Source: a virus. Taken from it: 64,000 nt of DNA. Under the pieces are notes generated by a model. It was not told the origin of the DNA. It saw only the letters and a program-made list of their open reading frames with translations, and ran no database searches. Below, piece by piece: positions 2,564 through 51,956 of this stretch; position 1 is the stretch's first letter; each line of letters begins with the position of its first letter. The translations under genes were made by a program, and so were the position numbers. Location: the IMG/VR virus record IMGVR_UViG_3300009347_000008. The stretch is one strand, 5' to 3'.

Positions 2564-3838
2564 TTACTCAGCAGCCTTAACGGTTGCCAGCGAACGCTCA
2601 GCGTAGTCGATACCAGCCTTAGCGATTTCAGTACCAACCTTACCAGCGAAGGTGAACACCTTGATCGCGCTGTTACCGGTAGCGGTGATAGCACGTTGAG
2701 CAATACGGCTGTCTTCAACCACAGCAGCCTTGCCTTCACCATCAGGAGCGGTTTCAGCAATCTTCTTGGCAGCTTCGATAGCCTTCTTCATGCCGTTCTC
2801 GAAAGCAGCCACAGCAGCCTTTTGACCCAGATTGTATTGAACAATCTTTTCTGCGGCCTTCAGAGCGGTAGCAACTTCAGCCTTCGACAGAGCTTCGATT
2901 TCGGGCTTGTCAGTGAAGGGCAGGTTTTCCTTGATGGTAATACCGAAGTCCTTCAGAGCTTCCCAAGCGCCACGGGCCGTGTCACCAACCGACTTGTCAG
3001 CGAACTTAACATCGATACGAGGACCGATGACTTCACCGCCAACCGACTTGAATGCAGCAGCTTCCTTGTACACGTCCATAGCAGCCTTCGACTTGTCGAG
3101 GAAGCCTTGGTCGTCAGCAGCACCTTGGTTGATGGAGATGGAGCTAGCCATAGCACCCAGACCAACGATGATCTTCTGCGTGTCGCCAGCGACCTTCTTC
3201 AGTTCTTGTTCGGTAGAACCCAGAACCTTCAGAACACCAGCCTTGTCACCCTTGCCAGCGGGCTTGGTGATACCAGAAGCCTTCACGTTGCCGGTGGTTT
3301 CACCCTTGGCAGCAGCAGCCTTCTTTTCCAGCGCGTTGATACGAGCCAGCAGCTTACGGTTACCGTCAAACAGCTTACCGAAGAAGTTCTTCACGAAGTC
3401 GACGATCTTCTGGAAAGCGTTAACCACGGCAGCCCAGATCTTCTTGACGGTTTCCTTGATGTCTTCGATAGCCAGTTGGGTAGCACGCTTACGGCCAGTC
3501 TTGCCACCGAACGATTCGAGAGCAGGATAGGAGCTACGTTGCACGCCCAGGCGAGAGTAGATCGACTCAACAGCCACTTCAGCGATTTCAGCAGCCACGG
3601 GGTCCAGACCACCTTCAGCTTCAGCCGCTTCAGCGGTATCAGCAATGCGTTCCAGGGTGTCAGCATCGGCAGATGCTTGATCGATCTCAGCACCGCCAGC
3701 TTCCACGTCAGCGGAAATGTCAGTAGCTTCCACCAGATCGGCTTCTGCGGACTCAGCACCGGTTTCGTCAATAGCCAGTTCGGCTTCTTGGGTTTCGTCT
3801 TCCATAGCGGCCACTAGGCCCTTAGCGAAAATAGACAT
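2564..3838 (-). CDS. Ala/Glu-rich acidic protein (424 aa), encoded in a conspicuously GC-rich segment; paralogue of the 3973..5619 product
   Basis: Roughly 55% GC versus a ~38% background. It shares the segment VNAFQKIVDFVKNFFGKL with IVNDVWQAIVRMFKALSDWIKDFFFNK in the next gene. The long plus-strand ORFs 2696..3817 and 2907..3530 are antisense artefacts of this GC-rich gene. Confidence 0.7.
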   Translation of the reverse strand: MSIFAKGLVAAMEDETQEAELAIDETGAESAEADLVEATDISADVEAGGAEIDQASADADTLERIADTAEAAEAEGGLDPVAAEIAEVAVESIYSRLGVQRSSYPALESFGGKTGRKRATQLAIEDIKETVKKIWAAVVNAFQKIVDFVKNFFGKLFDGNRKLLARINALEKKAAAAKGETTGNVKASGITKPAGKGDKAGVLKVLGSTEQELKKVAGDTQKIIVGLGAMASSISINQGAADDQGFLDKSKAAMDVYKEAAAFKSVGGEVIGPRIDVKFADKSVGDTARGAWEALKDFGITIKENLPFTDKPEIEALSKAEVATALKAAEKIVQYNLGQKAAVAAFENGMKKAIEAAKKIAETAPDGEGKAAVVEDSRIAQRAITATGNSAIKVFTFAGKVGTEIAKAGIDYAERSLATVKAAE

Positions 3839-25017: not shown

Positions 25018-26481
25018 ATGAAAGACTTTTTAAATTTGAAACAGGGTGAAGTTGGAATCGAATGTCGCTTCGCAACGTACGTCAAATCACCCCAACCCGA
25101 GTTGCCGGATTTACATCTTGTAAAAGAGCAAGTACATAAGGATGACGGTACAATTGTACCAACCGTAAAGCCTGTCTATAATTACGAACGACCTTATTGG
25201 ATTGTTAAAAAAGGTTGTCGTAATTTCAATCAGCCTAAAGAGTGGATTGAAAAAGAACGTGTCAATGAATTCTATTCGACACAAACAGACCTCCTATACA
25301 AGGCAGCATCGTCTCTAGGTAAACCATACTTTAAGAAGTCAATTAAAGACCTAGCAGCAGAGAGCCCGTATCTCTTTGGTATCGACATTAAGAGTACAGC
25401 AGTTATCAAGCAGGATTACATGGTTAAGTATCCTGATCTAAAGACTGAATATTCAGTAGGCGTGTTCGATACAGAAACTGATGTCATCCATGGGACTGAT
25501 GAAATTACCATGGCTACTTTTAGCTTTGGTAAGATTTGCTTCACAGCAGTACAGAAGAGTTTCTTCAAAGGTATTGCCAATCCAGAGCAAGAGGTTCTTG
25601 AAAAGACTAATAAGTATCTCGATCAATATATAACTAAGCGAGGTATCAAACCTGTATTAGTTATTGTGGACTCCGAGATCGATGTTCTAATTGAGACATT
25701 CAAAGTCATTCATGAAGCTAAGCCAGACTTTCTCTCTATCTGGAACATGAAGTTCGATATCGGTAAGATTCTAGAAGCTTGTGAACGTGCTAACTTCCCG
25801 ATTGAACATTTGATGTGTGATCCGTCTGTACCTAATGAGTACAGATCTTTCAAGTTTATTCTTGGCCCTAATCAAAAGAAGACTGCTAGTGGGTTGGTCA
25901 TGCCAATCAAACCAGCAGCGCAATGGCATACTGTCAAATGTCCTGCCTCCTTCTACGTGATCGACGCGATGTGTGCTTATAAACACACTCGTATGGGTGA
26001 ACAAGAAAAGAAGTCGTATAGCTTAGATTTCATTTTAGGTGAGGAGTTAAACTTAGGAAAGCTTAAGTTTGAAGAAGCCAATCATCTATCAGGTCTAGAT
26101 TGGCATAAATTTATGCAAGAGTTCTACCCTGTCGAATATGTAGTATATAACAGATTCGACTGTATTGGTATGGAACTACTTGAAGATAAAGTTAAAGACA
26201 TGCGAGTTGTGCTTCCGCAATTCTCTGGTTCTTCTGACTTTGAAGACTTTAAGTCTCAACCACGTCGTAAGATGGACGCTCTACATTGGTTCGTTCAGAA
26301 ACACGGCCGTGTAATGGGGTGTACTTCCTCAGCTTTGGTTGATGAAGAACTCGATCCAATGATCTTGGGGCGTGATGAATGGATTATTACTCTAGCTCCT
26401 TCACTTATTACGAGAGAAGGTCTACGAGTCATTGAGGAGAATCCAGAACAAGTTACAACGATCTATGGTCACGTTGGAGAT
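25018..26481 (+). CDS. Family-B DNA polymerase, exon 1: N-terminal domain plus 3'-5' exonuclease domain. The terminal stop codon of the ORF is probably intronic.
   Basis: Exo I-like FDTETD, Exo II-like WNMKFDIGKIL (NxxxFD) and Exo III-like YVVYNRFDCIGMELL (YxxxD). The ORF ends ~95 aa after Exo III, exactly where polymerase motif A is expected. Confidence 0.65.
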
Positions 26482-28166
26482 TAACTAAAGATACTGACAC
26501 GTCTATTATATGTTGTAGCTTATATAATAGGTTTAACGTGTTTACAAGAAAAGAACTTTACGTACCTTTTTCTGGAAGAAGATATATTATCACTAATACT
26601 GGTAAGATATTAGATTCTGAGAAGAAAGAAATTCCTGTTGAAATAATTGATAGGTCTATTTTTGTGGAAATTGATTGGTTACTTGGTAGGAGAAAATATC
26701 TCTTGTCTGTAATAGTAATGTTCACTTATGGATCTCTTAAAGTACCAGATCATCTACTAGACTTAGTAGAACCTCTTTACGTTGATGGTGATTTTAGAAA
26801 TTTAACACCCCAGAATCTTATCTATAGATTCAAAACCCCACTAGAAGTAGAAAACTATCCTGGTTTTTTCCTTATACCCTTTTATGTTAATTACGCTTTA
26901 AGTAAGAATGGCTCATTAATTAATATAGAAACTGGTAAGGAAAAACAATGGTCAGTAACATCAACTGAAAACAATAAAAAGAATCAAAAAGGTGGCTATT
27001 ACTTTAGCCGTGTACTTAATGATTTCGGTTTCAGTAAGTGTTTATTTCTACACAGAGCATTATGTTTAGTTTTCAAAGAGTACGATAACAAAGTCCAGTC
27101 ACTTGTGGTCAATCATAAGGATGGTAATCCATCTAATAACCACTTAGATAATATCGAATGGTCTACTTATAAAGAAAATAATAATCACGCTATTGCCATG
27201 GGTCTTAGATCAGATAATAAACCTATCTTATCGAAGAACATTAAAACTGGTGAGATCATGAAATTCTCCAGTATTAATGAATGTGGAAGGTATTACAATG
27301 CTCCTAGAGCAGGTTTTATCCAACATAGGTTGAAGAAATCTGGCAATAAAATATATTCGGATTATTTATTATTTAAGTATGACGACGGGACAGAGTGGCC
27401 ATCGATAGACCTTAATAAAGTCGAAATTATCCGAGGCGGCAGAAGTGACTTAATCAAAGCTAGAAATGTCTTTACTGGTGATGTTATTTTATTCTTAGGT
27501 GCTGAAAAAGGCTCTCACTTAACAGGTGTTAAAAAAGCTACTATTTTAAATCACGTAAAAAAAGGACACTTGATACCTTGTAAAGGTTGGAATTTTAAAT
27601 GGGACAACGACGAGACTCCGTGGCCTAACCACACACATCGTCATTTGAAAGTCTATGAAAAATTCCCAATCTTTCCTCCCACTGGTGCAATTATTTTTGA
27701 TACGGAATTAAACGAGGAGCTTTTCTTTGAGAGTGTAGCTTTAGCGTGTAATTTCTTAAATATCACTAAACATGTTTTTAGTGATTACGCTAAATCAAAA
27801 ACTTTATTAAAGAAAAGATATTCGCTTACGTATTTTCATCTTGTGAAAAGTCTAGGTCTCCCTACAGAGTAATCTGTAGTAAAAAACTATGTGAATTGAC
27901 TGGAACAAGCTTAGAGCCTCATACACTCCCTACTCCAGTAATGAGAGTAGTACAGTAAAAGAGATGAGGATTGTTTAACCAGCAGCCAAGCTTCCTGACC
28001 AACGACGTGAGTCGCCGTCAGGGTGAAGGTTCAGAGACTACATACCACAAGTGTGGTTAGCGCATAGCCCCATTATTCAATGGGTGAAGATATAGTCCGA
28101 TCTATAAGGAAACCTTATAGCGGGTGCCATAGCGTACCGGCTTAGTCTAACGAACTAAGTGGACAG
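26482..28166 (+). mobile_element. Group I intron (~1.7 kb) in the DNA polymerase gene, carrying an HNH endonuclease ORF; boundaries approximate
   Basis: Canonical P7 elements: R = GGTTCAGAGACTACA (28026-28040) and S = GAAGATATAGTCC (28088-28100), with the P7 pairing GACTA/TAGTC. A P9 hairpin TATAAGG-aaa-CCTTATA follows. The intron ends with G28166, directly before an in-frame exon whose first residues are KLDVSASYPN (polymerase motif A). Confidence 0.6.
26538..27872 (+). CDS. Intron-encoded HNH homing endonuclease (444 aa; GTG start)
   Basis: HNH core VVNHKDGNPSNNHLDNIEWSTYKENNNHA; located inside the group I intron. Confidence 0.7.
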   Translation: MFTRKELYVPFSGRRYIITNTGKILDSEKKEIPVEIIDRSIFVEIDWLLGRRKYLLSVIVMFTYGSLKVPDHLLDLVEPLYVDGDFRNLTPQNLIYRFKTPLEVENYPGFFLIPFYVNYALSKNGSLINIETGKEKQWSVTSTENNKKNQKGGYYFSRVLNDFGFSKCLFLHRALCLVFKEYDNKVQSLVVNHKDGNPSNNHLDNIEWSTYKENNNHAIAMGLRSDNKPILSKNIKTGEIMKFSSINECGRYYNAPRAGFIQHRLKKSGNKIYSDYLLFKYDDGTEWPSIDLNKVEIIRGGRSDLIKARNVFTGDVILFLGAEKGSHLTGVKKATILNHVKKGHLIPCKGWNFKWDNDETPWPNHTHRHLKVYEKFPIFPPTGAIIFDTELNEELFFESVALACNFLNITKHVFSDYAKSKTLLKKRYSLTYFHLVKSLGLPTE

Positions 28167-41608: not shown

Positions 41609-42394
41609 TTAGTCGGAAGAATAATTAAAATCTTTCCAGAGTGGGGATTTACTTTTTAACCTCGCTATCATGGTATTAATCTTAATACCATATTCAGCGG
41701 CAGCTTCTGAAATAGAAGAATAGATTTTACCTTCGCAGATAACTTTACGTGTTTTAGGTCGAATATCAAGTAAAGAACAATTTCCATTATGGAGTCTGCT
41801 TCTTATTGTCTGGACAGCTACCCCAGTTTCCCGGCTAGCTTCTCTAACGGAGTTATATTCTACACCATCAACAACTATATTTTCTCCCATTGATGAGATC
41901 ATTTTTGATCTAAGTAAACTATTCTTCCATCTTTCTTTAGAAAGATTAGAAGCTAATATTCTACCTTCCTTCGATTTACTAAATTGATTCCTCAATTCAA
42001 CAGGAATCGAATTAGCTGCAAAAGCATTTACTGCATTACTAGCTATATTAAAGAGTATTCCGCTATTAATACCTTCATTTAAGATACACTGTTCTCTTTC
42101 TTGTGCATTTTCTACACTTGTTTCTAAGGAAATATGAACAATAAAGTTATCTTTATCATTCTCATCATAGTTTTTTTGAAGATTTCTATTTCTGTGTACT
42201 GATCTCTCCAATTCACTTAAATGATTCTTAAGCCTCAGATTTACATTATTAGTACTCCCAACATAGAAGCAGCCAGTTTTATTATTTTCTATAGCATAAC
42301 AAGCAGGCAATAATGGGACACAAAGTAATCTTAAATCTACTAATTTTAAAATTATCCTGTTATTAATATTATCTAGGAAGAAATTCGATTCCAT
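41609..42394 (-). CDS. Free-standing GIY-YIG homing endonuclease (261 aa) with C-terminal NUMOD-like DNA-binding repeats
   Basis: CYAIENNKTGCFYVGSTNNVNLRLKNH (GIY-YIG core) and two IxVxGxxYxSxxEAA repeats; the coding region is very AT-rich. Confidence 0.65.
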   Translation of the reverse strand: MESNFFLDNINNRIILKLVDLRLLCVPLLPACYAIENNKTGCFYVGSTNNVNLRLKNHLSELERSVHRNRNLQKNYDENDKDNFIVHISLETSVENAQEREQCILNEGINSGILFNIASNAVNAFAANSIPVELRNQFSKSKEGRILASNLSKERWKNSLLRSKMISSMGENIVVDGVEYNSVREASRETGVAVQTIRSRLHNGNCSLLDIRPKTRKVICEGKIYSSISEAAAEYGIKINTMIARLKSKSPLWKDFNYSSD

Positions 42395-42871: not shown

Positions 42872-43138
42872 TTACTTTCCAGAAGTTTGCAGAAGAATTG
42901 TATCTTCTTTAGGACGAGAGTTTTTGTTCAAGGTCTCGGACCTCCCCCAGCAGATTTTACCATCCGTGAAGCCAGCAGAGATCAACTCACGGAACTCACG
43001 ATTCCAATCACGCTCGTGGCCTTCTTTGATGTAGCTGAGCACTTCATAGAACCGATTGTGGTCAATGCCCTTCTCGAAGATGAAGATTTGCTCAGGGCCG
43101 TCGTGGGTCTTCGTGACCACGTATTTCATTTCACGCAT
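42872..43138 (-). CDS. Hypothetical protein (88 aa)
   Basis: ORF. Confidence 0.4.
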   Translation of the reverse strand: MREMKYVVTKTHDGPEQIFIFEKGIDHNRFYEVLSYIKEGHERDWNREFRELISAGFTDGKICWGRSETLNKNSRPKEDTILLQTSGK

Positions 43139-43859: not shown

Positions 43860-44240
43860 TCAGAGGATATTACTAGACACCGCATCGAGGCGGCGGATTG
43901 CAACCGGACCAATAGATTGATCAGGCAACGTACCGAGAATCACCAAGTCCCCGATATTCAAAGGTGAAAAGTTCTTGGTGAGGCGACGCAGAAAATCGGT
44001 AGGGATTCCAATATCAGGACCGCTGCGACCACGGACGATTGTCATGTCAGTCTTACCTTCTTTGAAGAACTGAGTCACAACACCGTGAGACCCGATGAAA
44101 GGACGCTCAAACGGGTAGAAGCTGCTCTCAGGAGCAACAGCTTGTACATCTACTTCTTCAACAACTACTTGCTCAGTATTGTCTGTTTGTTCTTCTTTAG
44201 GAGGTTTCTTTCCGAAACCAACTTCAATAACGTTTGACAT
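43860..44240 (-). CDS. Hypothetical protein (126 aa)
   Basis: ORF downstream of promoter-like box copy 3. Confidence 0.5.
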   Translation of the reverse strand: MSNVIEVGFGKKPPKEEQTDNTEQVVVEEVDVQAVAPESSFYPFERPFIGSHGVVTQFFKEGKTDMTIVRGRSGPDIGIPTDFLRRLTKNFSPLNIGDLVILGTLPDQSIGPVAIRRLDAVSSNIL

Positions 44241-44330: not shown

Positions 44331-44359
44331 AAAGAGAGTCCTATAATAGGACTCTCTAG
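44331..44359. terminator. Hairpin AGAGAGTCCT-ataat-AGGACTCTCT
   Basis: 10-bp perfect stem after the stop of the Thg1-like gene. Confidence 0.6.
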
Positions 44360-44370
44360 TATGATATTGA

Positions 44371-45162
44371 TTATCCAAATATACGTTTGTTTCTTTCGTC
44401 GATACTGCTATTAGTAAATGACTCTGGCTGAATTTCAATAACGTACTTACTGAATTCATCACCTTCTAAATGTACTTTCTTTCGCTTGATATAGATACCA
44501 TTCTTGAACTTGGTATTAATATTATCCCAATCGTATTTGTGTACTTCTTTGATAATACGGATACGTTCAACAAAAGTTTTATTATCAATATCTTTACCGA
44601 TACCTAAATCACTGCTGATAGCAATGATACATTTCTTGCTATTCTCTCTTTCTGCCCAAAGTAGAGCGTTGCCTGTTTCAGTTCTGTTAGGTACTCTGAA
44701 GATAGTAACATCAAAAGCTGGATAGACTCCACGATCATATAGTTCATCGATGTCCCTAGACTCTGCTAGTTTCAAAGAGAAGTGGGTGGCAGCAGAACTA
44801 GTAACAGCGCTTACTAGTTTTTGTTTCTTACCGCCATATTCAAGGGGAGCTTTCTCAGTTCCATGAATGACCATCATGATCTCTGAAACGCCCACATGTG
44901 CGTACTTAGCTTTAAAGGTGTTAAGCAGATAAGTAGCAGTTTGTTGCATTAGATCAAAGCATCCAAAATCGAATGGAGTTTCAAACACTTTGGAGAAACG
45001 TCGAATATTCTTGAAAGAAATCCTTACAAGAAGGACACTATTGGTAGGATTGAATGCTTGATCTTTCTCCTGATCTTGGTAGTAAGACATTCGTTCATAT
45101 AGACACATTCTACTTTTTTCTTTAGTAGTTAGTGGTTGGCCGGTCATAGGCTTTTCTCTCAT
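44371..45162 (-). CDS. Thg1-like protein (tRNA-His guanylyltransferase / 3'-5' nucleotidyltransferase family), ~263 aa from the internal Met (MREKPMTGQP...)
   Basis: LLVRISFKNIRRFSK resembles VVVRLDGRNFHRF of human THG1L (recalled). HVGVSEIMMVI is a weaker resemblance to the downstream GQSDEYSFVF block. An AAGGTGA RBS precedes ATG 45162. Confidence 0.5.
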   Translation of the reverse strand: MREKPMTGQPLTTKEKSRMCLYERMSYYQDQEKDQAFNPTNSVLLVRISFKNIRRFSKVFETPFDFGCFDLMQQTATYLLNTFKAKYAHVGVSEIMMVIHGTEKAPLEYGGKKQKLVSAVTSSAATHFSLKLAESRDIDELYDRGVYPAFDVTIFRVPNRTETGNALLWAERENSKKCIIAISSDLGIGKDIDNKTFVERIRIIKEVHKYDWDNINTKFKNGIYIKRKKVHLEGDEFSKYVIEIQPESFTNSSIDERNKRIFG

Positions 45163-45249
45163 CACTGTCACCTTTAAGTTACTGTATAATAACGGTATTA
45201 TACACATAATGTTTTTTGTTTATTTTATTTATCATTAGTACGGCATAAA

Positions 45250-45271
45250 GGACAGGGGTGTAACCCTGTCC
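45250..45271. terminator. Hairpin GGACAGGG-gtgtaa-CCCTGTCC
   Basis: Palindrome flanked by CATAAAG/CTTTATATG. Confidence 0.55.
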
Positions 45272-45281
45272 TTTATATGTG

Positions 45282-46125: not shown

Positions 46126-46305
46126 TCCTCACCGAAGTGAATGCAGTCTAGGAACCACCCTAAACCATGCTCTTTAGAGTCCAGTTTAGGTTCCCCCGTT
46201 GCCTGAAGCTGGTGGGTTAATCCGGTCAGTATGTAATTAGTAAATAATAGTATTACCTCTATAACTTAATGTTAAAGAGATGAATACTAGATAGTGTATA
46301 AGCGT

Positions 46306-46352
46306 CGCGTTAGGGGAGTTAACCCCTAACGATCCCGGCCTTCACGGGATTG
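46306..46352. terminator. Two tandem hairpins (CGTTAGGGG-agttaa-CCCCTAACG and ATCCCG-gccttca-CGGGAT) downstream of the GC-rich gene at 46367..46876
   Basis: Perfect inverted repeats on the 3' side of the minus-strand gene. Confidence 0.55.
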
Positions 46353-46366
46353 GACCTAGCGCACTT

Positions 46367-46876
46367 TTACTTGCGAGGAGCAGCCTTGGTAGCAGCGCGA
46401 GGAGTTGCCTTCTTCGCAGCAGCCACGGCTTGACCTTGTTCCTTGAATGCAGTCAGCACCTTCTCAGCATTGGCTTGCAGCCATTCGAGAGGAACACCAT
46501 GTTGCAGTTCACGAGAAACAGGAGCACCCAGCAGAACCATCAACGGGATGTAATCGCGGGTTTCAGCACCGTAAGCACGAGCCAGTGCAATGTTCTTTGC
46601 GCTCTCGCGAGCAGCAGCGATCACACGGTTCGCATTACGAATGGCTTCGAACTGAGCACGCAGTTCAGCATCGGCAACACTATTGATTGCCATGATTTCC
46701 TTGACAGCAGCGCGAGTTGCTTCCTTACGGTTAGCAGCCAGTTCTTCTTCCATGATAGCTTGGATCTCAGCATCATGAATCACGGGCAGACCGAATGCAG
46801 CCAGAGCTTCCTTTTCAGCAGTGGAAGCAGCCAGATCAGTCAGGGCATGGATGTTAACAGCGATGAGCTTGTTCAC
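46367..46876 (-). CDS. Ala-rich protein with a basic C-terminal tail (169 aa), strongly GC-rich; candidate abundant DNA-binding/virion protein
   Basis: Composition (A/E/K-rich, C-terminal AAAKKATPRAATKAAPRK) and GC content far above background. Confidence 0.6.
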   Translation of the reverse strand: MNKLIAVNIHALTDLAASTAEKEALAAFGLPVIHDAEIQAIMEEELAANRKEATRAAVKEIMAINSVADAELRAQFEAIRNANRVIAAARESAKNIALARAYGAETRDYIPLMVLLGAPVSRELQHGVPLEWLQANAEKVLTAFKEQGQAVAAAKKATPRAATKAAPRK

Positions 46877-47073: not shown

Positions 47074-47739
47074 TCATTTGGTGTATCCGAAATGATCGAT
47101 CATTTGTTTCACAGTGACTCCATCACTGTAACCACATTTAACACTGTTGTATTGGGCAGCCACTTTATCTCTAATGTGGGCACCCTTACCATCAGATCTC
47201 ACGTAATAAAGATTCACGCCATCACAGAAAGAACCTACGATCTTACCAGGATGGTCTTGCAACGAGTTAGCTAGTTTGGCAACTTTGTAAACCAATTGGT
47301 CATATGTACCATTGTTTTCAATGATGACATCGAATTCATCTTTCGGGATATTGAAAGATGTAATTGGTTCCAAAGGAACACCTCGACCACTAGCATCAAC
47401 CCAAACCTTTAGATCATAGAGATGTTTAGATGCATTAAATTCTTCAAGATCACGCATCCCTACATAGATTTGGTGTTCCTGTAGAATCTCTCTAGACAGC
47501 CTTGCCTTGTCGGGAGTATTGTAGTTCCTGATAAGCTCATAGAGATAAGGTCTATGGAGACTTCTCTTCTCGTAACATTCGGCAAAGCTACTATATCCAG
47601 TATGTGCCATAATGACATCTTCTAGGACTTTCATAGCATATGCTGATGATGAACTAGCTTTATAATTGTTGAAATCACAAAGCAGATCAGCTACGGAATC
47701 TTTACCATGACGGCCATGTCCACATATAAGTAACTTCAT
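47074..47739 (-). CDS. Deoxynucleoside monophosphate kinase-like P-loop kinase (~221 aa from MKLLICGHG...)
   Basis: MKLLICGHGRHGKDSVADLL resembles the N-terminus of T4 gene 1 dNMP kinase, MKLIFLSGVKRSGKDTTADFI (recalled from memory). Confidence 0.5.
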   Translation of the reverse strand: MKLLICGHGRHGKDSVADLLCDFNNYKASSSSAYAMKVLEDVIMAHTGYSSFAECYEKRSLHRPYLYELIRNYNTPDKARLSREILQEHQIYVGMRDLEEFNASKHLYDLKVWVDASGRGVPLEPITSFNIPKDEFDVIIENNGTYDQLVYKVAKLANSLQDHPGKIVGSFCDGVNLYYVRSDGKGAHIRDKVAAQYNSVKCGYSDGVTVKQMIDHFGYTK

Positions 47740-47932
47740 GTGAAAACTTTCATTGCTAAAGATCAATTTATTCGAAATCACGGATCTTAGAAAAAACAAT
47801 ATCGATAGTCATTTTTCAGTCTCTTTGAAAAAATGATGGCATAAAGAGTGTTGGACTACCGCTACTCATCATTAGGTCTCTGGAGGGTGGAGGGAGGAGA
47901 GAGACCTAATAACTTTCACAATAGCCCAAACA

Positions 47933-48474
47933 TGGTGCCCCGAGCCGGAGTCGAACCGGCACGCTACTTAATTCGCAGGAGATTTTCTTACCACTATAGT
48001 TTTCACTACCAAACAACTTACCATACGTTAAAGGATCTTAGTTTGTTTGTGGTCTGGACTATGCCTTGATCATGCCCACGTCTGGGTTTAGATCGGAACC
48101 GTCTAGTCTCTACACTTTCCTAATCACTGATTAGGCTTAGCTCGGCGTTGTCATGTTAATATCCAGAGGGTTACTTCTAGTGTAACATAGGTAGCTGGCA
48201 CTACACACCCTATACCGGGATTATCCTATTAATTTAGAGTTCGCCGAATTTGATTCCATTCACCTAGTAACTCCGACTGACATATAGGTCTTTCTCCTAT
48301 ATTTAATGCGCTTATCGGATGGCGTCGATACAGATAACTGTTGTCGTTACTATTTTACCGTCTTTCGATTGACTGTTACGCCTATAATAGACTACCAATC
48401 ATTTTTTCGGTGGTGCTCAATATAGCTATCGCTATCTTAAAGTCTCCGGTGTCTACCAATTTCACCATCGGGGC
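47933..48474 (-). tRNA. tRNA-Leu(UAA): tRNA-Leu(UAA) split by a group I intron. Exon 1 is 48440..48474, the intron is 47987..48439, and exon 2 is 47933..47986 (CCA encoded).
   Basis: Exon 1 reads GCCCCGA-TG-GTG-AAATTGGTAGA-CAC-C-GGAGA-CUU. Exon 2 reads AAAA-TCTCC-(17-nt variable arm)-GCCGG-TTCGACT-CCGGC-TCGGGGC-A-CCA. The acceptor stem (GCCCCGA/TCGGGGC) and anticodon stem (GGAGA/TCTCC) pair perfectly. The anticodon is U34|A35A36, with the intron inserted exactly between U34 and A35. Confidence 0.8.
47987..48439 (-). ncRNA. ORF-less group I intron (453 nt) inside tRNA-Leu(UAA)
   Basis: Minus-strand P7 elements: R-like GTGTAGAGACTAGACGG (rc of 48100-48116) and S-like AAGGCATAGTCC (rc of 48053-48064), pairing GACTA/TAGTC. 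P8 is the hairpin CCCA-gacg-TGGG. P9 is the 8-bp stem CAAACAAC/GTTGTTTG. The 5' splice site follows U34 and the last intron nucleotide is G. No ORF of 60 aa or more lies inside. Confidence 0.75.
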
Positions 48475-48493: not shown

Positions 48494-49351
48494 TTACTTC
48501 GATGGAGTAAGATTTTGAAGATTTACAAAAGGTGTAGCTTCACCAACCACTTGAGGAAGAACACCATTCCATTTCTCAATTGCGAGTTGAGTCAGGACTT
48601 GAGGGTTAGCACGAAGAGCTTCACCACGGATACGGGCTGCTTCTGCTTCACCCTTAGCCAACGCAATAGCTTTGGCAGCATCTGCATTGGCTGCACGCAG
48701 TTCGTTTTCCTTTTGTTGTGCAATCTGTGTAGCAGCAATCTTGTTATTGATTGTCTTATACACAGCTTCAGGGAGTTTCATCTGTCCAACAAAGTAAACA
48801 CTTTCAATAGTGATACCTACTGCTTCTGCACGCTTACGGACATCATCTTCAACCTTTTTTTGCAGCTCAGCTTTACCTGCGCCATATGCATCTTCAACCG
48901 TAACTGAAGAAGCTGCAAGATTCAGAGAATCACGAATCATTGCACGCAGATATACTTGAGTAATCTCATCCACACCACGGCGGTATTTCTGAAAGACTGC
49001 TGGAGCATTCTCTGACTTGATGTAGTAGCTGATACCAAGATCAGTCTTTACAGACAGACCTTCAACTGTTTGGAAAGCAAACGATTCATCAGAGCGACCA
49101 TCTGCTTTGTCGTTGGTATTGTCATTACCACTAGACCAAACAAACGATTGGGTGAATGTTGGGAAAAGGAATAGATCCGTATTAGGACCAATCCAATAAC
49201 GCCCTGGACCAAGTACCGTAACGTTGACACCGCGTTCATCACCGTATTTGTCAATCTTCACACCAACATTGCCTGCTGGCACTGGACTACATCCGGTAGC
49301 GAAGATACCCATTGTAATAACAGCAACAATCATCCAAAGACGCTTAAACAT
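48494..49351 (-). CDS. SPFH/Band-7 (stomatin/HflC-like) lipoprotein (285 aa)
   Basis: Signal peptide with a Cys lipobox (MGIFATGC), followed by a conserved SPFH core and a long Ala/Glu-rich coiled-coil tail (AEAARIRGEALRANPQVLTQLAIEKW). Confidence 0.7.
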   Translation of the reverse strand: MFKRLWMIVAVITMGIFATGCSPVPAGNVGVKIDKYGDERGVNVTVLGPGRYWIGPNTDLFLFPTFTQSFVWSSGNDNTNDKADGRSDESFAFQTVEGLSVKTDLGISYYIKSENAPAVFQKYRRGVDEITQVYLRAMIRDSLNLAASSVTVEDAYGAGKAELQKKVEDDVRKRAEAVGITIESVYFVGQMKLPEAVYKTINNKIAATQIAQQKENELRAANADAAKAIALAKGEAEAARIRGEALRANPQVLTQLAIEKWNGVLPQVVGEATPFVNLQNLTPSK

Positions 49352-49775: not shown

Positions 49776-50285
49776 TTAGATACTACAAACGTAGATTTGA
49801 ATTGGATACTTCTGGGCAACGTCTTGTACCAATGGATACACTTCTGTATTCCAATCAAGGCCACCAAACCCACAACCGATCTTCGGCATTGCAATTGATT
49901 TAGGGAGAGACTCTGTGTATTGCACAGAATGAGCTAAATGCAGTAGTGCTGTATGAATACTAGTTTGATCAGCATATTTAGCACCGTCTTTACCGTAGAA
50001 GTTCTGGGTAAAGAGATTAGCAATGAAAGTATCTTTGTCTTTCACTATTTGGGAAAGACCAAGTAATTGATTAGCTCTATTTGGATCGCAGAAACGTCCG
50101 AAAATAAAAGACTCACCAGAATTACCTGTAAGGTACAGCCTCATGTACTCTTCATAAGCCTTTGGGTATTGCGCTCTTACCTGTTTGGCTACACCAGAAT
50201 TCATTTTACCTTGACAGTTAACACCATGAGCAATAACTGAGGTATTAGAGAAATCAAAAACAGACTGGCTTCGATATTCGATCAT
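49776..50285 (-). CDS. Macro-domain protein (ADP-ribose binding/processing; ~169 aa from MIEYRSQ...)
   Basis: VIAHGVNCQGKMNSGVAKQV (like the macro NAAN...GGGV segment) and PKIGCGFGG (like the GIGxxG segment). The track start 50327 would overlap tRNA-Met, so the start was moved. Confidence 0.65.
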   Translation of the reverse strand: MIEYRSQSVFDFSNTSVIAHGVNCQGKMNSGVAKQVRAQYPKAYEEYMRLYLTGNSGESFIFGRFCDPNRANQLLGLSQIVKDKDTFIANLFTQNFYGKDGAKYADQTSIHTALLHLAHSVQYTESLPKSIAMPKIGCGFGGLDWNTEVYPLVQDVAQKYPIQIYVCSI

Positions 50286-50299
50286 AATAAGAATCCTAG

Positions 50300-50374
50300 T
50301 GGTGGGAAAAGCGGGATTCGAACCCACGCCTTAACGATTATGAGTCGTCAGTACTACCGCTATACGATCTTCCC
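50300..50374 (-). tRNA. tRNA-Met(CAU): tRNA-Met or tRNA-Ile2 (anticodon CAU), CCA encoded
   Basis: GGGAAGA acceptor stem pairs with TTTTCCC; anticodon arm GACGA-CTCATAA-TCGTT; T arm GTGGG-TTCGAAT-CCCGC. The G1-C72 pair argues for an elongator type. Confidence 0.75.
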
Positions 50375-50846: not shown

Positions 50847-50920
50847 GGGATAGCCACTATGGATCGAACCCAGAACCACAGGGGTCACATCCCTGCGCTC
50901 TACCATTGAACTAAGATGGA
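50847..50920 (-). tRNA. tRNA-His(GUG): tRNA-His(GUG)-like gene with a non-canonical acceptor region; possible pseudo-tRNA or a gene needing 5' repair
   Basis: D arm TA-GTTC-AATGGTA-GAGC and anticodon arm CAGGG-ATGTGAC-CCCTG are perfect. The T arm CTGGG-TTCGATC-CATAG has one G-A mismatch. The 3' strand reads TGGCTATCCC with no CCA. The 5' strand TCCATCT cannot pair with it. Confidence 0.45.
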
Positions 50921-51368: not shown

Positions 51369-51956
51369 TCACCAGTATTTCATTACTGTATTTCTGGAGA
51401 TTTTTAATTGATCTGCGATCTTGTAAACACTTAAACCTTGGCTCCTGAGAGCTTTGATTTGATTAATAATATCTTGACTCTTTGTTCGACCTACAGGAAA
51501 AGCTTCTGGATTTGTTTCTATTTGATATTTAGCTTTACATGAATTAGAACAGAAGATTAGTCCACTACCATTATTAGTATAATGTTTGTAGAACTTTTCA
51601 CCCATACTTCTTTCAGTTAAAGTAAAATCTTTACCACAATATGGACAAGCTAAATCAAATTTCTGCTGTACATTATTGATGTAATGTAAGCGTTGCTTCT
51701 CTCGATTTTGTTCAGGTGTTAGGATTTGAAGATTGTTAGGATCATCATTGGTTTTATTATTGTCAATGTGGTCTACTTCTTCTTGGTCAGTTAAGAAGCG
51801 ACCAAGCTTAACCGCCATTAAATATCTAGCCAATGTAGTTCCTGTTAGAGAACCATCAAATCTTTTTAATGTGACAGCTCTCCTGCCTTCATTATTCACA
51901 TAAACATAACCTGCCTGATACTCAGTATTAAAAGGATATTCTAAATCTATTTTCAT
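51369..51956 (-). CDS. Free-standing HNH endonuclease (195 aa) embedded in the tRNA cluster
   Basis: VDHIDNNKTNDDPNNLQILTPEQN (HNH_3-type) followed by a Cys cluster (CPYCG...CSNSC) and a C-terminal HTH-like segment. Confidence 0.65.
   Translation of the reverse strand: MKIDLEYPFNTEYQAGYVYVNNEGRRAVTLKRFDGSLTGTTLARYLMAVKLGRFLTDQEEVDHIDNNKTNDDPNNLQILTPEQNREKQRLHYINNVQQKFDLACPYCGKDFTLTERSMGEKFYKHYTNNGSGLIFCSNSCKAKYQIETNPEAFPVGRTKSQDIINQIKALRSQGLSVYKIADQLKISRNTVMKYW

Follow-up and report, generated by a model that had tools for sequence, protein, structure and literature searches.

The presence of a relative of the tRNA-His guanylyltransferase Thg1 in the virus record IMGVR_UViG_3300009347_000008 of the IMG/VR database raises the question of what such a protein does in a giant phage. 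The gene lies in a stretch of 64 kb that was analysed as a whole and is referred to here as the window:

44371..45162, minus strand: coding sequence of the 263-aa Thg1-like protein, whose active site is degenerate (list of open reading frames, Pfam, PHROG and AlphaFold2)

Thg1 enzymes and Thg1-like proteins (TLPs) are, to our knowledge, the only polymerases that work in the 3'-5' direction, and we know of no member studied so far that does not keep a two-metal active site. The original prediction for this locus was of an active 3'-5' nucleotidyltransferase involved in the maturation or repair of the 5' ends of tRNAs. The results presented below lead to a different answer: judging from its active-site residues, the protein has probably lost 3'-5' transferase activity, and we propose with moderate confidence that a lineage of phiKZ-related freshwater jumbo phages conserves it as a pseudoenzyme, in which the two-metal site has been lost and whose role is probably non-catalytic, perhaps in RNA or tRNA binding. 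In what follows, P0001-P0009 are the relatives that form a clade with the window protein, and L-numbers (e.g. L001) designate related contigs.

A Thg1/TLP relative in a phiKZ-related jumbo phage

The open reading frame (ORF) at 44371-45162 is real and encodes 263 aa, and by homology and fold the protein belongs to the Thg1/TLP superfamily, as had been proposed from the sequence. The profile search suggested with that proposal gave a match to Pfam family PF04446 above the curated threshold (54.1 bits, with the cutoff at 29.2, over residues 28-158), and phrog_4717, annotated as 'tRNA-His guanylyltransferase', matched residues 21-248 with an E value of 2.5e-22. No match was found in NCBIfam for the protein, nor with PADLOC for the gene or seven of its neighbours. 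The best relative of solved structure is the TLP of Bacillus thuringiensis (BtTLP, PDB 4KGK), with E values of 1e-3 when a single sequence was used and 4.5e-7 with a profile. An AlphaFold2 model was obtained with a predicted local distance difference test score (pLDDT) of 85 and a predicted template modelling score of 0.83, and when it was compared with the PDB using Foldseek the top 32 matches were all Thg1/TLP chains (E values 2e-12 to 1e-8, 233-269 aligned columns), while adenylyl cyclases and GGDEF domains, the next structural neighbours, followed far behind at ranks 33-50. The predicted structure has the polymerase-like palm and the C-terminal fingers with a β-hairpin that characterize the Thg1 fold.

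The phage is a phiKZ-related jumbo phage: its 983-aa virion protein is 42% identical to that of Burkholderia phage FLC9 and 36% identical to those of Ralstonia phage RP12 and of Xanthomonas and Pseudomonas phiKZ-like phages (290 records matched). When the locus was compared with phage genomes by megablast no match was obtained, and therefore no close sequenced isolate of this phage exists. No relative was found in a scan of IMG/VR with motifs of the clade, and a scan of Joint Genome Institute metagenomes recovered only six close relatives, all with the same degenerate motifs. One related contig, L001 (GCA_036667855.1, contig JAVWTF010000001.1, 259,245 bp), was deposited in a metagenome-assembled genome (MAG) of 'Aurantimicrobium sp.'; it is syntenic with the window and carries phiKZ-like phage genes, and is most likely a mis-binned jumbo-phage genome.

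Loss of the two-metal active site

Residues were compared in an alignment of the window protein, BtTLP and 184 relatives obtained in two database searches, 175 of which fall outside the clade of the window protein; the clade comprises this protein and P0001-P0009 (n=10, 39-94% identical). In the 175 non-clade proteins K9, E12, R28, D30, G31, F34, S74, D75, E76, K99, R131, R147, D150 and N154 (BtTLP numbering) are conserved at 98-100%, and the three conserved carboxylates D30, D75 and E76 are all kept in 173-175 of them. In BtTLP, D30 and D75 coordinate two Mg2+ ions and E76 braces R28, and the D75A substitution greatly lowers activity (PMC3701042, PMC4820378). The two aspartates are equivalent to D29 and D76 of human THG1 (hTHG1) (PMC3701042, PMC4820378), and neither the Thg1 enzymes of human and yeast nor the archaeal TLP MaTLP can dispense with the corresponding pair (PMC3701042, PMC4820378, PMC6471195). 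The correspondence between the window protein and BtTLP is as follows (window protein=BtTLP):

Replaced: S49=D30, F50=G31, V92=S74, S93=D75, T153=R131
Replaced: A170=R147, K177=N154, S26=K9, Q29=E12, T62=K43
Retained: R47=R28, D65=D46, E94=E76, K115=K99, S118=S102, D151=D129

Both motif alignments of the original prediction are correct, but it overlooked that they place Ser at both metal-binding Asp positions, S49 and S93: VRISF lines up with VRIDG, and GVSEI with QSDEI. Where the enzymes of the family have three carboxylates (hTHG1 D29, D76 and E77, equivalent to BtTLP D30, D75 and E76), the window protein has S49, S93 and E94, and E94 is the only acidic residue in either motif. The activation and transfer sites are also depleted. 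In yeast ScThg1 the residues of the first are K44 and S75/76 and those of the second R27, K96 and R133, which correspond to K43 and S74 and to R28, K99 and R131 in BtTLP (PMC3701042). Of these positions and of R147, E12 and K9, only R47 (=R28) and K115 (=K99) are kept in the window protein, with replacements at T62, V92, T153, A170, Q29 and S26.

These losses extend through the clade. The first Asp is replaced by Ser, Leu or Val and G31 by Phe or Ile in all ten members, while the second Asp has become Ser, Gly or Asn in nine, Asp being found only in P0006; the third carboxylate position holds Glu or Asp in every member. In addition, K9 and R131 have been lost in all ten (K9 being Arg in one), S74 and N154 in nine, and R147 in eight. 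Since the replacements differ among members of the clade, they point to relaxed constraint rather than a new catalytic solution. As a control, other phage TLPs were checked, namely those of the isolates Xanthomonas XbC2, Vibrio D181, Bacillus Kioshi, Brevundimonas Gurke and Burkholderia BcepSaruman, of the MAG Lak-B2 and of Burkholderia FLC9, and D30, G31, S74, D75 and E76 were kept in 7/7. The five isolate proteins and that of FLC9 have the canonical residue at practically all catalytic positions, and Lak-B2 deviates at a small number of those listed above other than these five. Variovorax phage V45v66 was left out of this control, since its record is GC-rich and unannotated and the longest ORF taken from it is probably not in the right frame.

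The proposal of an active nucleotidyltransferase is thus not supported, given the replacement of the D30 and D75 equivalents together with those of G31, S74, R131, R147 and N154. With its two-metal-ion site gone, the protein would be unable to extend RNA at the 5' end. By homology it is a superfamily member, yet its residues suggest that it lacks the catalytic features by which the enzyme family is defined.

The gene is maintained by purifying selection

The ratio of nonsynonymous to synonymous substitution rates (dN/dS) of the Thg1-like gene is 0.07 against L001 and 0.13 against L004, and a further comparison between orthologues gave 0.11. The reading frame is intact in every relative recovered, down to 39% identity, and an intact ORF was found in more than 12 contigs with 44-94% identity. 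The gene is therefore being maintained by purifying selection. The order of genes around it, consisting of a gene for a 169-aa Ala-rich protein, a twister-sister ribozyme, up to two (0-2) small ORFs, the Thg1-like gene and a gene for a 126-aa protein, is kept down to 44-46% protein identity.

A possible role in RNA or tRNA binding

The scaffold of Thg1 has been kept and its two-metal chemistry would have been lost, so that the protein may act without catalysis, most likely through RNA or tRNA binding, and perhaps jointly with the conserved 126-aa neighbour described below. Shielding or chaperoning of tRNAs, a decoy function for a host factor directed at tRNAs and sensing of RNA 5' ends are among the candidates for such a role. 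Part of the former nucleotidyl-transfer and phosphate site persists, i.e. the R47-E94 pair (=R28-E76), K115 (Lys or Arg in the clade) and S118, with D65 also retained. A C-terminal β-hairpin is predicted in the model, with strands at 223-230 and 239-245, and the position of K239 in it is Arg in 94% of the canonical relatives and Lys or Arg in nine of the ten clade members. The proteins of the clade are basic, with an isoelectric point of about 9 (8.6-9.3). The residues kept at the phosphate site, the hairpin with K239 and the basic charge would all suit non-catalytic binding of RNA or tRNA. A conserved hairpin Arg of MaTLP binds the tRNA elbow (PMC4820378); K239 would be its equivalent, a correspondence that, like those drawn for MaTLP R136 and R215, was reached indirectly and not through a direct alignment. 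Besides these features, the clade has invariant blocks that are absent from canonical TLPs (MCLYERM, YQDQEK, H89, KKQ at 112-114, WxERE and a C-terminal ERNxRIF), and these clade-specific blocks mark a new functional surface.

A more specific version of this idea, which we put forward only tentatively, is that the phiKZ-related lineage turned a tRNA 5'-end polymerase into a dead tRNA-binding protein that shields, sequesters or escorts tRNAs. Such a protein could guard tRNAs from a host defence nuclease directed at them, or handle the tRNAs of the phage, perhaps jointly with the 126-aa neighbour; if so, it would be the first pseudoenzyme of the Thg1 family found in nature with a biological role.

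Several observations weigh against a catalytically dead, tRNA-binding protein. P0006 retains the S-D-E of motif 2. We infer the inactivity of the protein from sequence, and the statement that no other carboxylates would reach the old metal site is likewise a reading of the alignment. BtTLP R147 probably matches R136 of MaTLP, the residue that reads the 5'-terminal base pair, and given that R147 has been lost in eight of the ten clade members, the protein may also bind the acceptor end less well. Finally, the tRNA-His(GUG) gene of L001 (3087-3161) has C73 and a T at position -1, so that G-1 is not encoded, which favours an ancestral or residual G-1-adding role, as seen in this single genome.

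Possible reuse of the scaffold as an enzyme or sensor

The palm scaffold might instead have been reused for another chemistry, or for the binding of a nucleotide or small molecule in the manner of degenerate GGDEF and cyclase domains. The strong purifying selection, the invariant blocks not found in canonical TLPs and the persistence of part of the second NTP site (R28, E76, K99 and S102) would all fit a neofunctionalised enzyme or a ligand sensor. However, the former catalytic positions vary within the clade, with no fixed new catalytic set in their place; the basic and polar residues conserved at the nucleotide sites have disappeared, the triphosphate contact R131 among them; and no other enzyme family was matched in Pfam, NCBIfam or PADLOC. 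We regard this explanation as doubtful.

The tRNA cluster and the case for an active enzyme

The prediction of an active enzyme, which would add G-1 to a phage tRNA-His or repair 5'-truncated tRNAs and possibly counter a host tRNA nuclease, drew on family membership and on the vicinity of a tRNA cluster, which lies 3-8 kb from the Thg1-like gene. Five tRNA genes had been proposed there. Using ARAGORN and Rfam, three were found in the window (Met, Arg and Ser), and to these a split tRNA-Leu can be added, while the fifth is only a tRNA-His-like element below the Rfam threshold. The tRNA-Leu(UAA) gene (47933-48474, minus strand) carries, between U34 and A35, a group I intron of 453 nt (47987-48439; Rfam Intron_gpI, 36.2 bits, below the gathering cutoff (GA) of 50), at what is the classic insertion site of group I introns in tRNA-Leu(UAA) of cyanobacteria and plastids. 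ARAGORN misses the split gene, but identifies the spliced sequence as tRNA-Leu(taa), approximately 91% identical to the uninterrupted gene of L001; the gene lacks the intron in both L001 and L004. The remaining element is:

50850..50920, minus strand: tRNA-His-like remnant with a GUG anticodon and an unpaired acceptor stem (Rfam and comparison with L001)

Its Rfam score is 28.8 bits (GA 29) for a match at 50857-50913 that covers model positions 8-63 only. The anomaly of its acceptor end, noted in the original prediction, is real: the upstream flank and the 5' acceptor strand are those of the tRNA-Asn of L001, joined at a shared TAG(C/T)TCA to the body of the tRNA-His of L001, and the element is a deletion chimera of the two. 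The same deletion removed tRNA-Ser(GCU), tRNA-Cys and one further tRNA-like element that are present in L001 at 2712-3161. The idea that the element is a substrate for 5' editing by a TLP was therefore discarded, its structure being explained by the tRNA-Asn/tRNA-His deletion. Among five related genomes with this region, all of which carry the Thg1-like gene, an intact tRNA-His was found only in L001, and none is present in L004, L020 and L023. The 3' end of this L001 tRNA-His reads CCC-T and not CCA, while the tRNA-Leu genes encode CCA. The link to a tRNA-His substrate is weak, and the tRNA context gives no support to it.

The proposed analogy with the T4 repair pathway did not hold in the window, where neither an RNA ligase nor a polynucleotide kinase that could serve such a pathway is present; co-encoding of an RNA ligase with an end-healing kinase/phosphatase, as in T4, is not seen. 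No RNA ligase was found in the 64 kb by tblastn, apart from a 14-codon 5' remnant of an RNA-ligase-like gene at 47771-47812 (minus strand), the rest of which has been deleted. L001-L003 carry a gene for a 350-aa RNA-ligase-like protein (6086-7138 in L001; weak match to PF09414, KIHG motif) 3 kb 5' of the Thg1-like gene, where it stands, together with a gene for a 103-aa protein, between tRNA-Leu and the gene for a P-loop kinase-like protein. In the window, the P-loop kinase-like protein (47074-47799) shows only weak matches to deoxynucleoside monophosphate kinase PHROGs.

Besides family membership and the nearby tRNAs, the L001 tRNA-His described above would be a substrate suited to a templated TLP, an RNA-ligase-like gene lies upstream in L001-L003, and canonical phage TLPs elsewhere are located near genes for CCA-adding enzymes or RNA ligases. 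Against this stand the absence of both metal-ligand Asp residues and of G31, S74, R131, R147 and N154, with E94 as the sole acidic residue of the motifs; the presence among the replacements of the first Asp of Leu and Val, which are incapable of binding metal; the chimeric tRNA-His of the window and its absence from three relatives that keep the gene; and the deletion of the RNA ligase. An active Thg1-like enzyme is, on balance, unlikely.

The 126-aa neighbour and the possibility of a purely protein-binding role

The gene that follows the Thg1-like gene is the following:

43860..44240, minus strand: gene for a 126-aa protein, directly 3' of the Thg1-like gene (tblastn conservation)

Homologues of this protein were found by tblastn just 3' of the Thg1-like gene in L001 (83% identity), L010 and L011 (48%), L008 (36%), and L005 and L006 (30%), the gene being directly downstream in 5/6 divergent contexts, and it is a possible candidate as a partner of the Thg1-like protein. 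It has no match in Pfam, PHROG or PADLOC, and its AlphaFold2 model, built on a shallow alignment, has a pLDDT of 41.6 and is unusable. In metagenomes the protein is highly microdiverse, with 72 clusters at 90% identity, and its C-terminal domain of approximately 85 aa is tandemly duplicated in L008 (2434-3060).

These data bear on a third explanation, in which the Thg1-like protein would make only protein-protein contacts, with no RNA binding, as a subunit or an inhibitor that, for example, poisons the tetramer of a host TLP or pairs with the 126-aa protein. Thg1 and TLPs are dimers of dimers (PMC3701042, PMC4820378), a quaternary structure that would lend itself to such a role, as would the recurrent presence of the 126-aa gene. 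On the other hand, no second, canonical Thg1-like gene that could supply a catalytic partner was found by tblastn in the 64-kb window, the closest cultured relatives of the phage infect Proteobacteria, and the 126-aa protein gave no usable model. This role seems improbable to us. A functionless, decaying remnant, which the loss of catalytic residues and the heavy turnover of genes nearby (homing endonucleases, tRNA deletions and loss of the RNA ligase) might suggest, is most improbable in view of dN/dS values of 0.07-0.13, a frame kept down to 39% identity and a confident AlphaFold2 model.

Signals around the Thg1-like gene and other neighbouring elements

The signals that flank the gene are listed below.

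45168..45174, minus strand: ribosome-binding site AAGGTGA, 5 bases 5' of the ATG at 45162 (read from the sequence)
45195..45202, minus strand: TATAATAC, -10-like element 5' of the Thg1-like gene (motif count in the window)
45247..45274, strand not assigned: perfect 11-bp hairpin (AAAGGACAGGG...CCCTGTCCTTT) between the upstream ORF and the Thg1-like gene (sequence)
44333..44357, minus strand: terminator-like hairpin of 11 pairs followed by TTAT GTTGT, 14 nt past the stop codon (scan)

The good ribosome-binding site that had been described is indeed present. The start codon it precedes is shared by P0002, P0003 and P0006, and because these three homologues begin at the same Met, a longer reading of 278 aa from 45207 is unlikely. 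The claim that the gene has its own promoter-like sequence stands in part: the -10-like element (TATAAT(AC)) is there, as the only promoter-like feature seen upstream, but a promoter scan found no full sigma-70-type promoter 5' of the gene, and the element does not recur in the window. As a candidate for a recurring phage promoter motif it was rejected, with one occurrence against 2.65 expected by chance. Since phiKZ-related phages use their own RNA polymerases, the sigma-70 consensus weighs little either way. The hairpin at 45247-45274 lacks a T-run on the minus strand; its inner stem was listed on the plus strand in the terminator scan.

Upstream of the gene lies a self-cleaving RNA:

46289-46367, minus strand: twister-sister ribozyme (Rfam RF02681, 41.9 bits, GA 34)

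It begins at the final base of the stop codon of the gene for the 169-aa Ala-rich protein (46367-46876), about 1.1 kb 5' of the Thg1-like gene, and was found in the same position in five related contigs (L001 8809-8886, L002 3202-3279, L004 3875-3953, L005 576-656 and L006 1082-1162), down to approximately 39% protein identity of the flanking gene. After self-cleavage, the RNA downstream of it would begin with a 5'-OH.

A Macro-domain protein (49776-50327, minus strand; Pfam 31 bits; phrog_335, 'phosphatase') adjoins tRNA-Met and an SPFH/Band-7 lipoprotein (48494-49351, minus strand) adjoins tRNA-Leu, both conserved in L001 and L004. Two homing endonuclease genes are free-standing, at 51369-51956 and 41609-42394 (both on the minus strand). 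The first, between tRNA genes, encodes an HNH_3 protein with a helix-turn-helix, and the second a GIY-YIG/I-TevI-like protein that shares 97% identity with a protein of L005, a contig that is divergent in other respects; their presence fits rapid gain and loss in the region. None of these neighbours, nor the P-loop kinase-like protein, forms a repair pathway. A second group I intron (27826-28120, plus strand; Rfam 66.5 bits, above GA) is located just after an HNH endonuclease ORF (26538-27872), which in turn follows a DNA polymerase fragment (25018-26484; phrog_3011), so that the intron and a homing endonuclease possibly lie in or beside a polymerase gene.

Comparison with known systems

Phage-encoded TLPs are already widely annotated, and that of Bacillus phage Bc431v3 was flagged as unusual in 2013; the clade with a dead site is the new part. 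Our literature search found no biochemical characterisation of any phage TLP and no report of a Thg1-family pseudoenzyme. If our proposal is correct, this clade would be the first natural pseudoenzyme of the family, and would show a tRNA-recognising scaffold put to non-enzymatic use in giant phages with fast-changing tRNA clusters, while a label such as 'tRNA-His guanylyltransferase', carried by the NCBI record for P0003, would be functionally wrong for its members. The interest would be modest if the protein were only an inert remnant scaffold.

The window protein is matched by 77 phage records, with 23-30% identity to it, and belongs to the same family as the phage TLPs of phrog_4717 (FLC9 gp260, Xanthomonas XbC2 gp144 and Bacillus Bc431v3 gp143), which are also found in large or jumbo genomes with tRNA genes. 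FLC9 is the nearest cultured relative, and encodes a homologue of the window ORF 42872-43138 approximately 2.3 kb downstream of its TLP. In contrast to the window protein, the phage TLPs checked that have a secure frame keep both metal-ligand Asp residues, G31, S74 and E76.

With BtTLP (PDB 4KGK/4KGM) the modelled protein would share the same palm-plus-fingers fold (Foldseek E ~3e-12, template modelling (TM) score 0.6-0.77), and R28, D46, E76, K99, S102 and D129 are common to both. It differs at D30, D75, S74, R131, R147 and K43, which are replaced in the phage protein by S, S, V, T, A and T, respectively; in BtTLP the last four are at conserved positions and several of them contact nucleotides (PMC3701042). 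The model also points to the fold of archaeal MaTLP bound to tRNA (PDB 5AXM/5AXN; Foldseek TM 0.64-0.78), with a predicted C-terminal β-hairpin that carries a conserved basic residue (K239), as does the elbow-binding hairpin of MaTLP. In this enzyme D21 and D69, which bind the metals, and R136, which contacts the 5'-terminal base pair, are required for the reaction (PMC4820378). Unlike MaTLP, the phage protein has S49, S93 and probably A170 at these positions, the last assignment being drawn from the W-R motif.

Outside the family, degenerate GGDEF domains and the inactive half-site of class III adenylyl cyclases are palm scaffolds that have been kept under selection after losing their metal carboxylates, and in most cases they still bind a ligand, as experiments have demonstrated. 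By analogy, the Thg1-like protein would resemble these pseudoenzymes in being a selected palm scaffold without metal carboxylates, and would differ from them in its family and in that it is for those domains that ligand binding has been shown.

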